A stretch of 43,253 nucleotides of DNA from a virus (Duplodnaviria; Heunggongvirae; Uroviricota; Caudoviricetes), in IMG/VR virus record IMGVR_UViG_2778261009_000005, positions 1 through 43,253 of that record; one strand, written 5' to 3'. A program made the translations under genes and the position numbers. The notes below the pieces were generated by a model, which made no database searches, was not told the origin of the DNA, and saw only the letters and a program-made list of their open reading frames with translations. This document shows positions 19,887 through 22,445 of the stretch, piece by piece (the stretch's first letter is position 1; the number at the start of each line of letters is the position of its first letter).

Positions 19887-20588
19887 TTATTCTGATTCTC
19901 GCTCAAAAAATGAGCTGATAAGGGGAAGCCAATCCTCTGACACTTCGCGAGGTCGCGGTTTGCCGTGGAAAAAGATTATTCGGCAGTCTTTTGGTAATGC
20001 CCCATTCCCCCTGGAGTAACGCGCGCTCGCATATTTTGAACCTGGTTCCACAACATCGGCCTTGTAACTTACAAACCATCCTGGATACAGATCCTGAAAT
20101 GCTGGTGTATCATCGCCCATAACCTTTCGTAAGAACCCCTGGTCACCCCAGCACTCAGTAGTGACACAACGAGAAATCCAACCTTCCGGATCTTGCCAGA
20201 ATGAACTCCAGATATGCGCTTTAACACTATTTGGTATCCACAGGGCACCGCTGCCACGATATTGTGGATGGTAAAAATCCCTAAGCATGGTGAAGCTGGT
20301 TGGTGGATGCTCTAGGATTGGGCGTATATCACCGGCAATAACCGTGTCCAAATCCAGATAGAACAGATCATCGGTTATATCCGGTCGGAACAACTCGATT
20401 TTCGCCCACCAGCCACGGCACTTTTGCCACTGGTTGATCAATGGGACAACTTTGACGCCAGGTACATGTAAACGCTTCAGGTCTGTCAGGCAAATAATTT
20501 CATAGCCTTTTGGCAGTTGATTAACCAGCCACTGCACATCGGAAGCGTTATAGTCACCACCAGAGCGAAAAACTAAAGCAATCTTCAT
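19887..20588 (-). CDS. Hypothetical protein, possible nucleotide-sugar transferase-like fold
   Basis: 233-aa ORF with a DLD motif; assignment weak. Confidence 0.45.
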
Positions 20589-21277
20589 GCTGCACCATCA
20601 CCTTTCACTTTCATCAATGTCAGGTTTCCGCAAAATACGGCACTAGTGTCGATATACTGCTGATTCCAGAATGTCTTCGGGCTTTTCACCGGAGTGTGAC
20701 CAAAGATAAAACGATCTGCGCCCGAAATTTCGCCACCAATATCATCCATCGAATCACTGATACGCTCGCGCGCCCAGACAACGTTGAAAAGCGGCACCTC
20801 CTTACCGAATTGGTATTCATTATCCGGATAGTCGGCATGGGCTATAACGATAGTTTCTTGCCCCGTGTTCAACTCAATGATATAGGGCAGACGCTTTACC
20901 AGCTCCACCAGCGCCCAGGCTAATATTTCCTGATCAGTGTCCAGCATGAAGAACCATTGTCCGCCATTCATTAGCCAGTTATTCACGTTGCCATCTGGAC
21001 TTAACGCATCAATCATCAGCCGCTCATGGTTCCCCATCACTGCCCTGAACCAGGGCATCTGCAATAGTTCCAGACATTCGACATTTTCAGTACCGCGATC
21101 GATAAGGTCGCCGACCAATATCAGTAAATCCTGCGCCGGGTCAAAATCCACACGATGGAGTTCGGACATCAGTCTGGTGTAGCAACCATGCAGATCACCA
21201 ACAACCCAGACATTCCTGTATTTGGTACCGTCGATACGGTGATAAATTGTGGGTGCCATCATGTATTCTTCAGCCAT
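20585..21277 (-). CDS. ppp: Ser/Thr protein phosphatase, lambda-PPase family (P1 Ppp-like)
   Basis: 230-aa ORF with metallophosphatase motifs GDLHG, GDLIDRG and GNHE. Confidence 0.85.
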
Positions 21278-21885
21278 TCTTTAAGAGTCATCTGCGGAAT
21301 ACCTCCCATTTTCCCGCATGAAACAACGTCAATCTGTTCACGCGCAGACTGGAATAACAAAGGCAGATGACTTAGATTTTTTGGCGTGCCGCCGGAGTGA
21401 ACGCGTAGTTCTTGCGTAGCGTCAACGCCCACCAGAGCTACATGTTTGAATCCGATATGGAAAGCCAGGTTCAGAGCACCATATGCACTATTGCCGCTGG
21501 CAATTTCATTCTCATCTTCGCAAAGGCCGAAATGTGCGGACCAGCGCCACGCCCACCACTCGGGAGAATTCGTATTTTTTGGCTCCATGCCGCGTTCAGC
21601 CACACGACGGAAGCACAGAACGCCATCTCTGACTTCACGTTCTTTAACATCGGGTAGTGCCATGCAATAACAAACACCACGGCGACGGCGGCCACGACCA
21701 ACGCGCCGCATATTGTCTGGGGATGGATCAAGGGTGAAAAAATAAGAAGCGCGGTTAAGCCAGTCGATGGCCCCATTGACCGCTATAATCGGCACTCCGC
21801 GCGGCGCAACAAAGTTTGCGGCGCTTGGGCCACTGCCGACGATAATAACGCGATCACTGCCTCTAAATTTATTCTTGGGAAACAT
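21259..21885 (-). CDS. GT42/Maf-like (sialyltransferase-fold) protein, paralog 1
   Basis: 208-aa ORF with VIIVGSGPS...IIAVNGA and [24 protein letters not shown] motifs resembling CstII-type transferases. Confidence 0.45.
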
Positions 21886-22445
21886 TGAATTGCACTGCTC
21901 CTACTTGCATTCAAAATATGTAAATCTGCGTGTTTTTTGCGGGTATCCAGGAACTGCTGTTGCCATTTTGAAATAGACACCTGCGTTGGATTCCGTAGTG
22001 CTTGAGGGTGCGCGCCATGCCAATGAAGGCCGTTTTGCAGAGAACAGTCATAGCCGACTAATACCACTACTTCAGCCCCTGATTCAGCAGCCAGACTGAT
22101 AGCCTGCGCGCCGCTATTTACCCCTTCCGCCGGTCCACAATATCGCCTGTACTCCAACGAAAATGATTTCGCCGCCGCCAGGTTGGCTGTCACTTTGCGG
22201 AATCTCCCTCCCGGTATGGTGGATCCGTATTGCTTCCACCATGACAAATCACCGGCGTATAAGGCATAAATGTCATCGAACATCTGCCAGGAATTGTTAA
22301 CCGCGATGATTGAACAGCCAGTTTTTTCTATAGCAGCACAGTCCTCACGAGTGAGTGACGGACCGCTACCGACACAAAAAACAGTCCTAGTCGCCCTGGG
22401 TGGTATGTTCATTCTCAGCTGCAAATTCAGCCTCCAGGCGAGCAT
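21783..22445 (-). CDS. GT42/Maf-like (sialyltransferase-fold) protein, paralog 2
   Basis: 220-aa ORF with VFCVGSGPS...IIAVNNS and NSGAQAISLAAESGAEVVVLVGYD; paralog of the adjacent gene. Confidence 0.45.
   Translation of the reverse strand: MLAWRLNLQLRMNIPPRATRTVFCVGSGPSLTREDCAAIEKTGCSIIAVNNSWQMFDDIYALYAGDLSWWKQYGSTIPGGRFRKVTANLAAAKSFSLEYRRYCGPAEGVNSGAQAISLAAESGAEVVVLVGYDCSLQNGLHWHGAHPQALRNPTQVSISKWQQQFLDTRKKHADLHILNASRSSAIQCFPRINLEAVIALLSSAVAQAPQTLLRRAECRL

Follow-up and report, generated by a model that had tools for sequence, protein, structure and literature searches.

Introduction

What does phage P1 do with a set of glycosyltransferase-like genes lying around its phosphatase gene ppp, and on what might their products act? 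E. coli geneticists have relied on P1 for seventy years, yet roughly one third of its genes still lack an assigned function. The four concerned here, pmgO, pmgP, pmgQ and dbn, received their names in 2004, and some of the four are already labelled glycosyltransferase or sialyltransferase in RefSeq. The published mentions that we found are limited to essentiality screens and annotation, and literature searches on pmgO/P/Q, hdmB/C/D, phage sialyltransferase or Maf, and phage Kdo transferase returned no functional study.

In this study, we examined these genes in a window of 43,253 nucleotides, the whole stretch of phage DNA analysed, in which the region of interest is 99% identical to P1. We find that pmgO, pmgP, pmgQ and dbn are one conserved mobile cassette with natural fusions and a variable tailoring slot; neither the cassette, nor its fusions and slot, nor its strong leaning, across bacterial phyla, towards head-morphogenesis genes was found described in the searchable literature. 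Four sugar-transferring enzymes that many unrelated phages carry as a group, usually beside head genes, lead us to suggest that P1 may glycosylate a protein of its own.

Results

Arrangement and control of the locus

All ORFs of the region are present on the minus strand in the ORF listing. The operon is headed by pmgN (22387-22542, minus strand), a 51-aa ORF of phrog_2350 (unknown function) that overlaps the annotated start of pmgO; tblastn matches to it fell in two module loci only (L084 and L085), with none outside P1-like loci. A CRISPRi call of pmgN as 'essential' conflicts with the deletion result. There follow, all on the minus strand, pmgO (21783-22445, 220 aa), pmgP (21259-21885, 208 aa), ppp (20585-21277, 230 aa) and pmgQ (19887-20588, 233 aa), and dbn (28380-29378, minus strand, 332 aa) lies directly after ban (29378-30748). 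The 103-nt overlap of pmgP with pmgO, which spans the non-conserved C-terminal tail of PmgO, suggests translational coupling, and the true start of PmgO may be Met12. No transmembrane segments were predicted, in keeping with a protein acceptor.

A sigma-70 promoter-like site recovered by scanning (22606-22634, minus strand) corresponds to the annotated P1 promoter PpmgN. Adjoining it is the weak C1 operator Oppp, placed at about 22586-22602 of the window from the P1 annotation (offset +10499); having more than three mismatches, it was not recovered by our C1 consensus search (≤3 mismatches). Further upstream, the control region of the pmgL-pmgQ transcription unit (23493-23542, assigned to neither strand) comprises the C1 operator O26/Op82 (23493-23509, a consensus match with two mismatches) and the late promoter LPpmgL (23524-23542, P1 annotation), within a segment (23440-23580) that matches the P1 annotation's sequence at 100% identity. 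At the downstream end of the pmgN-pmgQ unit, two further C1 operators, OpmgRb and OpmgRa, lie with PpmgR at 19820-19885; the consensus search placed them at 19820-19836 (plus strand) and 19869-19885 (minus strand), and the P1 annotation also has them. The identity of LPpmgL and the C1 operators to those of P1 argues for lytic expression.

PmgO and PmgP are anciently diverged paralogs with a Maf-type fold

The motifs that first linked the 208- and 220-aa ORFs, GSGPS...IIAVN and NS(A/G)...GxD, are genuine. In PmgO they comprise VGSGPS (residues 26-31), IIAVN (46-50) and NSGAQAISLAAESGAEVVVLVGYD (110-133), and in PmgP VGSGPS (17-21), IIAVN (33-37) and a 24-residue NS...GxD segment (132-155). The N-terminal GxGPS, the central NSG/NSA and the GxD motifs are conserved in both families. 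Invariant residues of the PmgO family are G28, P29, S30, N50, D66, S111, G112, G131, Y132, D133, H141 and H143, with S27 nearly so; in the PmgP family H173 is invariant, and G19, P20, S21 (nearly invariant), N132, S133 and G153..D155 are invariant or nearly so. H141/H143 of PmgO and H173 of PmgP lie downstream of GxD and are at most candidates for a catalytic base equivalent to His188 of CstII.

Pairwise BLASTP aligned PmgO and PmgP at the N-terminal motif only (E 0.003). Profile-profile comparison of the two families by hhalign, from which the PmgO-PmgP fusion P0051 was excluded on the PmgO side, gave a probability of 98.2% (E 3.9e-14, 160 columns), and their likeness is therefore homology and not chance. 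Both lineages co-occur in Bacteroidota and Proteobacteria, which makes the duplication ancient. The initial annotation of a tandem paralog pair thus holds as regards adjacency, overlap and homology, but not if it is taken to mean a recent tandem duplication.

By two methods, the top match of both PmgO and PmgP was Maf, the motility accessory factor flagellin glycosyltransferase (for example that of Magnetospirillum magneticum, PDB 5mu5). The alignment covers only about 160 of the 632 Maf residues, so that the multi-domain architecture of Maf is not reproduced. Similarity to PF01973 (MptE-like, DUF115, a family of MptE, Maf and WaaZ-type proteins) was also found, at 23.4 bits for PmgO and 20.9 bits for PmgP, below the gathering threshold of 34.6 and over the C-terminal part of the model only; 31 of the 33 PmgO-family members match this model at E<0.01 (best 3e-8). 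The PmgP profile had no match at E≤10 among PDB sequences. The fold of both proteins, for each of which a structure model was predicted, is the Rossmann-like one common to Maf, MptE and GT42 enzymes; pyrophosphokinases share it too. Of the two resemblances proposed initially, that to Maf came first among the matches, whereas GT42 showed no significant sequence similarity: the PmgO profile reached only E 0.12-0.58 against Campylobacter jejuni CstII/CstI, and Pfam gave no match to PF06002.

PmgQ, Dbn and Ppp

The window proteins scored below the Pfam and NCBIfam curated cut-offs for all glycosyltransferase families. Searched singly against PDB sequences, the four proteins found nothing beyond chance level, except for a weak GT8 match of PmgQ. 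The DLD noted in the 233-aa PmgQ is a true DxD (D79-L-D81, in YLDLDTV), accompanied by GDQ (G148, D149) and FHGxPRP (H208, R212, P213), and D79, D81, G148, D149, H208, R212 and P213 are invariant. In the PmgQ family profile all three motifs aligned with AgtA (6mw5, E 3.4e-7) and glycogenin-1 (E 6e-6), and PHROG places the protein in family 1962 (glycosyltransferase). The window PmgQ had no Pfam match; PF01501 (Glyco_transf_8) was reached by one of 12 relatives, at E 0.15. PmgQ is thus a GT8-like retaining GT-A glycosyltransferase of the glycogenin/AgtA branch.

Dbn is probably a GT4-like GT-B glycosyltransferase. Its EX7E motif (E248-x7-E256) is invariant in 46 sequences (THPESLGLTVLEAAMCGA), as are D173, H174 and H246. 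It scores 23.9 bits (E 3.4e-5) against PF00534 (Glycos_transf_1), for which the gathering threshold is 26.4 bits, and its profile matches the putative glycosyltransferase 8xsg (E 1.9e-4) and, weakly, MshA. The gene after ban had been called GT1-like; position and glycosyltransferase nature stand, but Pfam Glycos_transf_1 corresponds to a GT4-like enzyme in CAZy, and the label changes accordingly. With a GT8-type DxD in PmgQ and a GT4 EX7E in Dbn, the reading of the cluster as glycosyltransferase-like is supported.

Ppp is a lambda-type Ser/Thr protein phosphatase, as originally proposed: it scores 60.5 bits against Metallophos PF00149 (E 3.9e-16; cut-off 21.5) and 265.6 bits against the PrpA-type protein phosphatase model PRK11439 (E 4e-79; equivalog cut-off 326), and belongs to phrog_246 (NinI-like). 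It occupies the gap between pmgP and pmgQ only in the P1-like loci L085, L086, L127 and L134. The notion of Ppp as a functional partner of the transferases was rejected because no copy of the module outside P1-like phages contains ppp; it is probably a passenger outside the glycan machinery. A cluster 'around the Ppp phosphatase' is therefore an accurate description of adjacency here, but an incidental one.

A mobile cassette with natural fusions and a variable slot

PmgO, PmgP and PmgQ occur together in about 39 non-redundant loci, nearly all with the complete trio and usually in that order. These loci span Proteobacteria and Bacteroidota (Enterobacterales, Pseudomonas, Xanthomonas/Stenotrophomonas jumbo phages, Zhongshania, Methylophilaceae, Brevundimonas and Sinomicrobium). 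Members are joined in natural fusions: PmgO-PmgP (P0051), PmgO-Dbn (P0249; hhalign probability 99.7%, E 2e-26) and Dbn-methyltransferase (P0287). In E. coli phage IME392 the order O-P-Dbn-Q is contiguous, and in L003, L098 and L130 Dbn lies within 3-5 kb of the module. Dbn is thus a fourth, optional cassette member, displaced in P1 to after ban. What lies between P and Q varies, and this slot can be taken up by Dbn, by methyltransferases or a sulfotransferase, or by a GT2-like gene; glycan-tailoring genes in or beside the module comprise class-I and FkbM methyltransferases, Sulfotransfer_2 and a GT2-like gene.

The neighbours of the module are mostly head genes (capsid, portal, head completion), and in at least ten lineages it has the major capsid gene on one side and connector/head-completion genes on the other. 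Among the 122 neighbours counted across 27 loci, the leading families are Phage_HCP, portal, capsid and connector; the top 25 include no LPS, flippase or DNA-modification families, and no flagellin or nonulosonic-acid synthesis families, the latter two being absent from the individual contexts as well. No pterin or thiamine genes were found near the module in this census. Other settings occur. Lambdoid relatives carry the module after their lysis cassette, and in Sinomicrobium, a marine phage and XacN1 it lies among nucleotide-metabolism genes (DNA polymerase, ribonucleotide reductase, dCMP deaminase, ThyX). Chromosomal copies adjoin an inverse-autotransporter adhesin. In five Pseudescherichia-type species genomes PmgO is encoded directly downstream of a 1166-aa inverse autotransporter with seven Big_1 domains, with P, Q and further Big_1 proteins alongside, and in Serratia two Big_1 proteins are encoded downstream of PmgO.

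Discussion

Relation to known enzymes

Comparison with characterized systems helps to put the cassette into context. Maf proteins are about 600 aa long with flanking flagellin-binding domains, whereas PmgO and PmgP, at about 200 aa, amount to the catalytic core alone; the genes for Maf adjoin those for flagellin and for pseudaminic/legionaminic acid synthesis, and the module lacks flagellar and nonulosonate genes. E. coli K-12 makes neither pseudaminic nor legionaminic acid. CstI and CstII act on lipooligosaccharide and use CMP-Neu5Ac, which is absent from E. coli K-12, so that the RefSeq product name sialyltransferase over-specifies. WaaZ (GT73), the enzyme that transfers Kdo III in the LPS core of E. 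coli and Salmonella, shares the MptE-like superfamily and uses CMP-Kdo. It differs in being encoded in the waa operon and acting on lipid A-core at the membrane, and the similarity of PmgO/PmgP to it is at motif level only (PmgP against TIGR04437, 11.9 bits, E 0.1, with an equivalog cut-off of 200 bits).

Glycogenin and AgtA, against which the PmgQ family profile scores E 3e-7 to 1e-5 with DxD, GDQ and the C-terminal His..(K/R)PW aligned, are retaining, UDP-hexose-dependent enzymes that act on cytoplasmic protein-linked glycans; the relation of PmgQ to GT8 is remote, seen by HMM profile only, and PmgQ is shorter (about 200-230 aa). In 2023, Freeman et al. reportedly found that mycobacteriophage glycosyltransferases and an O-methyltransferase decorate capsid and tail tube. 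The logic of those cassettes is the same: several soluble phage glycosyltransferases with a methyltransferase, expression with structural genes, and host nucleotide sugars. Their hosts, however, are of Gram-positive type, the enzyme families differ (we know of no Maf-fold enzyme among them), and glycosylation is demonstrated there but only proposed for the pmg cassette. Aah/TibC, adhesin-adjacent cytoplasmic heptosyltransferases that use an LPS precursor sugar, offer an analogy for the Pseudescherichia and Serratia loci, although their fold (BAHT family, ADP-heptose) is unrelated and the adhesin link of PmgO/P/Q is one of gene neighbourhood alone.

Weighing the alternatives

That the cassette instead modifies the host LPS core or another envelope glycan appears unlikely to us. 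PmgO and PmgP would then be like WaaZ, and Dbn and PmgQ like the GT4/GT8 outer-core enzymes, hiding LPS core glucose, the receptor of P1, from superinfecting phage or preventing loss of progeny on debris. WaaZ of E. coli is a member of the MptE-like family (PF01973, E 6.9e-7), a WaaZ model matches 11 of 35 PmgP relatives weakly (best E 0.006), and the precomputed Pfam entries for P0051 include WaaZ_KDO_III, marked faint. The mix of WaaZ-like, GT4 and GT8 families mirrors the waa locus, P1 is established to adsorb to the LPS core, and a place after the lysis cassette in lambdoid relatives fits this reading too. Direct comparison by hhalign with K-12 WaaZ, however, gave probabilities of just 19% for PmgP and 12% for PmgO, and PmgQ against WaaJ and Dbn against WaaG showed motif-level similarity only, much weaker than to glycogenin and AgtA. 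The census lacks LPS, Und-P, flippase and ligase genes, and chromosomal copies adjoin adhesins, not waa genes. Timing points the same way: exclusion would pay in lysogens, in which the P1 cassette genes are silent because they are C1-repressed, and LPS made late would presumably not replace that already at the surface.

The MptE name of the sole Pfam family matched by PmgO and PmgP raises the idea that the two are MptE/thiamine-pyrophosphokinase-type, ATP-dependent pyrophosphokinases making a small-molecule diphosphate independently of PmgQ and Dbn. We consider this improbable, given that Maf outranks other matches by both methods, that in P0249 PmgO and a GT4 enzyme are parts of one polypeptide, that pmgO/pmgP are almost always syntenic with a GT8 enzyme, that their companions are sugar-tailoring genes (FkbM, sulfotransferase, GT2-like) and that pterin or thiamine genes are missing nearby. 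Glycosylation of phage DNA, as a base hypermodification that evades restriction, seems more improbable still. The modules among nucleotide-metabolism genes in Sinomicrobium, the marine phage and XacN1 would fit it, as would the precedent of phage glycosyltransferases that put Kdo, heptose and oligosaccharides on 5hmC (bioRxiv 10.1101/2023.12.21.572611). Those enzymes, however, are T4-beta-GT-like GT-B or GT-A and not of Maf fold (bioRxiv 10.1101/2023.12.21.572611). Module contexts are mostly head genes, and in the P1 annotation of the region examined neither hydroxymethyl-pyrimidine synthesis nor a TET-type oxidase is represented. As far as we know, P1 DNA is ordinary save for methylation.

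A proposed route to a protein-linked glycan

The explanation that we regard as best, and hold tentatively at a level approaching an even call, is a soluble glycan-building cassette that acts on protein, most plausibly a virion (head) protein. Its parts differ in firmness. Folds, motifs, paralogy, linkage, fusions and gene neighbourhood are observed directly. That the cassette catalyses glycosyl and not pyrophosphoryl transfer is probable; CMP-Kdo as donor is an evenly balanced proposition; and for a protein, or virion protein, as acceptor our confidence falls slightly short of that. Under this proposal, pmgO, pmgP, pmgQ and dbn would form one functional unit, a portable, soluble, cytoplasmic glycan builder. 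PmgO and PmgP, as anciently diverged Maf/GT42-fold transferases, probably act as a pair, since their genes overlap here and occur as natural fusions elsewhere. Should both be glycosyltransferases, a CMP-activated ulosonic acid would be the donor, and CMP-Kdo is presumably the sole such sugar in E. coli K-12. Hexoses would be added from UDP-sugars by PmgQ, as a metal-dependent, retaining GT8-like enzyme, and by Dbn, as a retaining GT4-like one, and in other phages the methyl- or sulfotransferases of the slot would tailor the glycan, the slot of P1-like phages holding the unrelated phosphatase Ppp. Transcription would take place in lytic growth, from the C1-repressed promoters and the late promoter, and the acceptor would be made in the same phase, most plausibly as a virion (head) protein.

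The closest solved relatives modify proteins: Maf modifies flagellin, glycogenin itself, and AgtA Skp1. The initial view that no substrate can be inferred may be softened, as the surroundings of the genes point to a protein as acceptor, probably one of the virion. On the other side, the capsid-connector and Rz-terS positions are generic moron sites, and the location of the module may for that reason reflect late transcription only. No plaque defect is seen when pmgO, pmgP, pmgQ, ppp and dbn are deleted or knocked down by CRISPRi, and two recent P1 cryo-EM papers and a virion proteome paper make no mention of a glycan on P1 virions; both count against virion glycosylation. We also know of no precedent for protein O-glycosylation with Kdo. 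The modules among nucleotide-metabolism genes, the sub-threshold family scores of the window proteins and the fold that PmgO and PmgP have in common with pyrophosphokinases likewise speak against the proposal.

In its boldest form, which we consider doubtful, the proposal would have P1 and many unrelated Gram-negative tailed phages put a short, acidic, Kdo-containing, LPS-core-like glycan on a virion protein (likeliest of the head), built in the cytoplasm from host LPS precursors by a portable cassette of three to four enzymes (the Maf-fold pair, a GT8 and sometimes a GT4 enzyme) with methyl- or sulfotransferases in its variable slot. Some Enterobacterales would have domesticated this cassette for inverse-autotransporter adhesins. 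If true, P1 would become the first classic coliphage with a virion glycosylation system, and protein O-glycosylation with Kdo would have its first case. The question of virion glycosylation is open to direct test, as P1 deletion mutants and virion mass-spectrometry data exist. Were virions found to be glycosylated, phage glycosylation, so far seen mainly in mycobacteriophages, would extend to Gram-negative phages, with a bearing on phage stability, immune recognition and the pharmacokinetics of phage therapy, and in E. coli the cassette might become a small toolkit for glycosylating proteins in the cytoplasm.

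Results

Over 4 kb around the cassette, identity to P1 and to the related P7, SJ46 and RCS47 is 99.0–99.2%, and the P1 reference annotation places on the minus strand pmgO (21783–22445, 220 aa), pmgP (21259–21885, 208 aa), ppp (20585–21277), pmgQ (19887–20588, 233 aa) and, directly after ban, dbn (28380–29378, 332 aa). The name "putative morphogenetic" (pmg) reflects only position downstream of a late promoter. RefSeq labels pmgQ "glycosyltransferase" and pmgO "alpha-2,3-sialyltransferase", the latter too specific to be justified, and the dbn homolog in P7 is annotated "glt". 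Except for pmgA, B, C, G and R, single deletions of pmg and upf genes leave plaquing and antirestriction normal (PMC9024508), and pmgO, pmgP, ppp, pmgQ and dbn were all non-essential in a CRISPRi screen (PMC10695390). Our literature searches on these five genes found no functional study.

Positions 19887–22445 form a P1/P7 mosaic, in which PmgQ is identical to P7 HdmD and SJ46 (100%; 97.9% to P1) and PmgP to P1 (100%; 99% to P7). Most PmgO homologs start 12–20 residues inside the P1 reading frame and stop about 15 residues sooner; translation may really begin at Met12 (22412). The tail at the C terminus of PmgO, which overlaps pmgP, lacks conservation. The annotated start of pmgO is overlapped by pmgN (22387–22542, minus strand, 51 aa), for which no homolog was found in module loci outside P1 and which is essential by CRISPRi, yet its deletion is viable and all downstream genes are non-essential (PMC10695390). 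PmgM (22609–23187, minus strand), a nuclease of VRR-NUC type that scores slightly under the cut-off (PF08774, E 3e-4), is conserved 5′ of the cassette throughout the P1-like elements and not at other loci.

The initial annotation described pmgO and pmgP as overlapping paralogs with shared motifs and a GT42 (CstII-type) or Maf-like character. The reading frames, overlap and motifs are all present. By BLASTP, similarity is confined to the N-terminal GSGPS..IIAVN stretch (E 0.003); comparison of family profiles, built from separately collected homologs with the PmgO–PmgP fusion left out, gave a probability of 98.2% over 160 columns (E 3.9e-14), which makes the pair true, though old, paralogs. Neighboring copies of both families are already found in Bacteroidota as well as in Alpha-, Beta- and Gammaproteobacteria. 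Invariant in PmgO are G28 P29 S30, N50, D66, S111 G112, G131 Y132 D133, H141 and H143, and in PmgP N37 G38, D53, a Trp-rich insert (PEWWxWRW), G131 N132 S133, G153, D155 and H173.

Confident AlphaFold models (pLDDT 86.3 for PmgO, 93.7 for PmgP) were compared with Maf (5mu5), MptE (8sd5), CstI (2p56), SteA (9hmy) and thiamine pyrophosphokinases. Foldseek against the PDB placed the Maf flagellin glycosyltransferase 5mu5 first for PmgO (E 1.5e-5), followed by generic Rossmann proteins and ST6GALNAC2 (probability 0.94–0.97). The proposed Maf/GT42 kinship thus holds at fold level, and structure prediction returned no non-transferase fold. Enzymes with this fold carry out one of two chemistries: transfer of a glycosyl group from a CMP-ulosonate (GT42, GT29, Maf, WaaZ) or of a pyrophosphoryl group from ATP (MptE, thiamine pyrophosphokinase). 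The window proteins reach no curated family cut-off at sequence level: against the MptE-like family PF01973, PmgO scored 23.4 and PmgP 20.9 bits (cut-off 34.6), and against WaaZ PmgP scored 11.9 bits (cut-off 200). Among relatives, 31 of 33 PmgO proteins matched PF01973 and 11 of 35 PmgP proteins weakly matched WaaZ. E. coli WaaZ is itself MptE-like (E 6.9e-7) and aligns with PmgO and PmgP at motif level only. Membership in GT42, Maf or WaaZ was rejected on sequence thresholds, architecture and context alike; PmgO and PmgP form a separate branch of the MptE-like superfamily.

A PmgQ profile of 12 relatives from the collected loci matched solved GT8 enzymes, led by the Skp1 alpha-galactosyltransferase AgtA (E 3.4e-7), with glycogenin-1 at E 6e-6 and weaker. 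Three motifs align with these enzymes, namely the metal-binding DxD, GDQ and C-terminal FHGxPRPW (H..KPW in glycogenin), whereas the LPS-type GT8 WaaJ is alignable only around DxD. A search of 1.84 billion cluster representatives yielded 259 Dbn relatives, and an alignment of 46 sequences shows D173, H174, H246, E248 and E256 to be invariant, the two glutamates giving the EX7E signature of GT4 enzymes. Pfam Glycos_transf_1 falls just under threshold on Dbn, whose profile matches the putative glycosyltransferase structure 8xsg (E 1.9e-4). No hydrophobic stretch in any of the four cassette proteins is of sufficient length to cross a membrane. Many Dbn-family proteins (P0248, P0262, P0274, P0275, P0281 and others) carry an extra C-terminal domain of ~200 aa without a Pfam match; P0259 consists of two Dbn units in tandem and P0283 joins Dbn to a hydrolase-like domain.

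Linkage was searched by tblastn and HMM in 17 species-representative genome loci, 30 non-P1 viral contigs and several annotated phages, giving 39 clusters at <85% PmgP identity. In essentially every locus with sufficient flank, pmgO, pmgP and pmgQ were co-located, usually in that order. Carriers include Citrobacter phage phiNP, E. coli phages IME392 and EP_H11, Cronobacter phage JK004, the Xanthomonas/Stenotrophomonas jumbo phages XacN1, Xoo-sp13, CM1 and RAS14, and prophages of Pseudomonas, Zhongshania, Methylophilaceae, Brevundimonas and Sinomicrobium. Natural fusions join PmgO to PmgP (P0051, 376 aa, with a PmgQ homolog directly next) and PmgO to Dbn (P0249; hhalign probability 99.7%, E 2e-26). 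In IME392 (locus L103) all four genes are contiguous (O 5507–6034, P 6001–6609, Dbn 6602–7561, Q 7570–8184); Serratia, Buttiauxella and a further P1-like element have a Dbn homolog within a few kb of the trio, and the CM1 and RAS14 genomes encode both. PmgQ of jumbo phages is a domain inside a 438-aa protein, and in XacN1 (ORF373–371; L105 9630–17531) three giant ORFs of ~1100–1300 aa follow the trio.

The variable slot between pmgP and pmgQ holds class-I SAM methyltransferases (L094, L109, L111, L159), FkbM methyltransferases (L126, L131; in L100, L104 and L123 they closely follow the module), a carbohydrate-type sulfotransferase (Sulfotransfer_2; marine phage locus L186, 8579–9193), a GT2-like protein (L121) or, in IME392, Dbn; another Dbn relative (P0287) is fused to a methyltransferase. 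Apart from Ppp, a lambda-type Ser/Thr protein phosphatase, and a few unidentified ORFs, all slot genes thus encode glycan-building or glycan-tailoring enzymes. The initial annotation had centered the cluster on Ppp; Ppp does lie beside the transferases, but it occupies the slot only in P1-like plasmid-phages and, given the other identified occupants, we treat it as a passenger outside the cassette. Ppp also has weak matches to bacterial Pnkp and an RNA-ligase PHROG, and Pap (17744–18250, minus strand), which the P1 annotation calls "putative acid phosphatase", hits PF25109, the HAD phosphatase domain of polynucleotide kinase-phosphatase (E 6.4e-12); both might be linked to nucleic-acid end repair rather than to protein or sugar chemistry.

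Outside the P1 group, the cassette most often has the HK97-type major capsid gene on one side and head-tail connector or head-completion genes on the other (L094, L096, L104, L110, L112, L113, L126, L131, L184, L186). Lambdoid phages (phiNP, L002, L003, L098) carry the cassette after the lysis cassette and before terS, and a few phages (L100, L187, XacN1) among nucleotide-metabolism genes. In 27 non-redundant, non-P1 loci, 122 proteins encoded no more than three genes from the module were counted by Pfam family. Phage_HCP (7), Portal (5), Capsid (5), Connector (4), and Big_1, tail tube and lysozyme (3 each) were the most frequent, with terminase and prohead protease next, and the top 25 included no family for LPS, undecaprenyl-phosphate, flippase, ligase, nucleotide-sugar or DNA-modification functions. 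Chromosomal non-phage copies occur in five Pseudescherichia-type species genomes (L088–L092, e.g. L088 3345–9266), where PmgO lies immediately 3′ of an inverse autotransporter of 1166 aa (IAT_beta and seven Big_1 domains), with PmgP and PmgQ alongside, then more Big_1 and RCC1 proteins; in Serratia (L003 2674–5115) two Big_1 proteins follow PmgO. This suggests that a phage cassette was domesticated for adhesin glycosylation. In a second marine phage locus, L104, the third gene upstream of the PmgO–Dbn fusion (1643–3535) encodes a protein of 630 aa that contains collagen-like and "phage tail repeat" sequences, a possible glycan acceptor.

Over 141 nt, the control region 5′ of pmgL shows 100% identity to P1; it contains the annotated C1 operator O26 and late promoter LPpmgL; a sigma-70-like site coincides with annotated PpmgN, and two C1 operators and PpmgR end the unit downstream of pmgQ. 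With these C1 operators and the late promoter, the cassette is shut off in lysogens and comes on during lytic growth, its late phase included. Across the window, 14 sites match the 17-bp C1 operator consensus at ≤3 mismatches (0.28 expected by chance; e.g. 4687, 17728, 33932, 37208) and map its immunity-controlled promoters.

Discussion

The cassette comprises four soluble enzymes of three glycosyltransferase-type folds, coupled across phyla and naturally fused, which keep company with sugar-tailoring enzymes, are expressed lytically and lie mostly inside head-gene clusters. That it builds a glycan is, in our judgment, probable. Because their genes overlap and a natural fusion exists, PmgO and PmgP would act jointly, as CMP-ulosonate transferases. 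To our knowledge, K-12, the host of P1, makes no sialic, pseudaminic or legionaminic acid, and all identified cassette hosts are Gram-negative, so the candidate universal donor is CMP-Kdo, an assignment to which we give roughly even chances. PmgQ and Dbn would add alpha-linked hexoses. The head-gene and adhesin contexts, late expression, lack of membrane or lipid-carrier machinery, and nearest solved relatives that act on proteins point to a protein acceptor, most plausibly a virion (head) protein, which we hold a little below even odds. The capsid-connector and Rz–terS sites are also generic moron insertion sites, which counts against reading position as function. Further points against are that the P1 cryo-EM and virion-proteome papers report no virion glycan and that cassette mutants plate normally (PMC9024508, PMC10695390).

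Modification of the LPS core would fit the WaaZ kinship of PmgO and PmgP and the waa-like mix of families, but envelope genes are missing, the cassette is repressed in lysogens and similarity to actual waa enzymes is weak; we regard it as unlikely. Structural matches to MptE and thiamine pyrophosphokinase would also suit pyrophosphokinases, an option made improbable by the fusion of PmgO to a GT4 enzyme and the tailoring genes in the module; it is mainly the glycan enzymes of the slot that favor glycosyl over pyrophosphoryl transfer. Least credible, and by a wide measure doubtful, is glycosylation of phage DNA: phage glycosyltransferases can put Kdo on 5hmC (bioRxiv 10.1101/2023.12.21.572611) and some cassette contexts are replicative, but the P1 annotation examined has no hydroxymethyl-pyrimidine pathway and the DNA glycosyltransferases of that study have other folds.

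The cassette genes are known and partly annotated already, and their bare observation is not new. Phage-encoded glycosylation cassettes and Maf-type protein glycosylation are the nearest known kinds; in the searchable literature we found no description of a cassette made of a Maf-fold pair with GT8, sometimes GT4, and a tailoring slot, nor of its spread through phages of Gram-negative bacteria and co-option beside adhesins. With a mechanism that we infer, "putative morphogenetic" genes of a model phage become a concrete, cheaply testable hypothesis.
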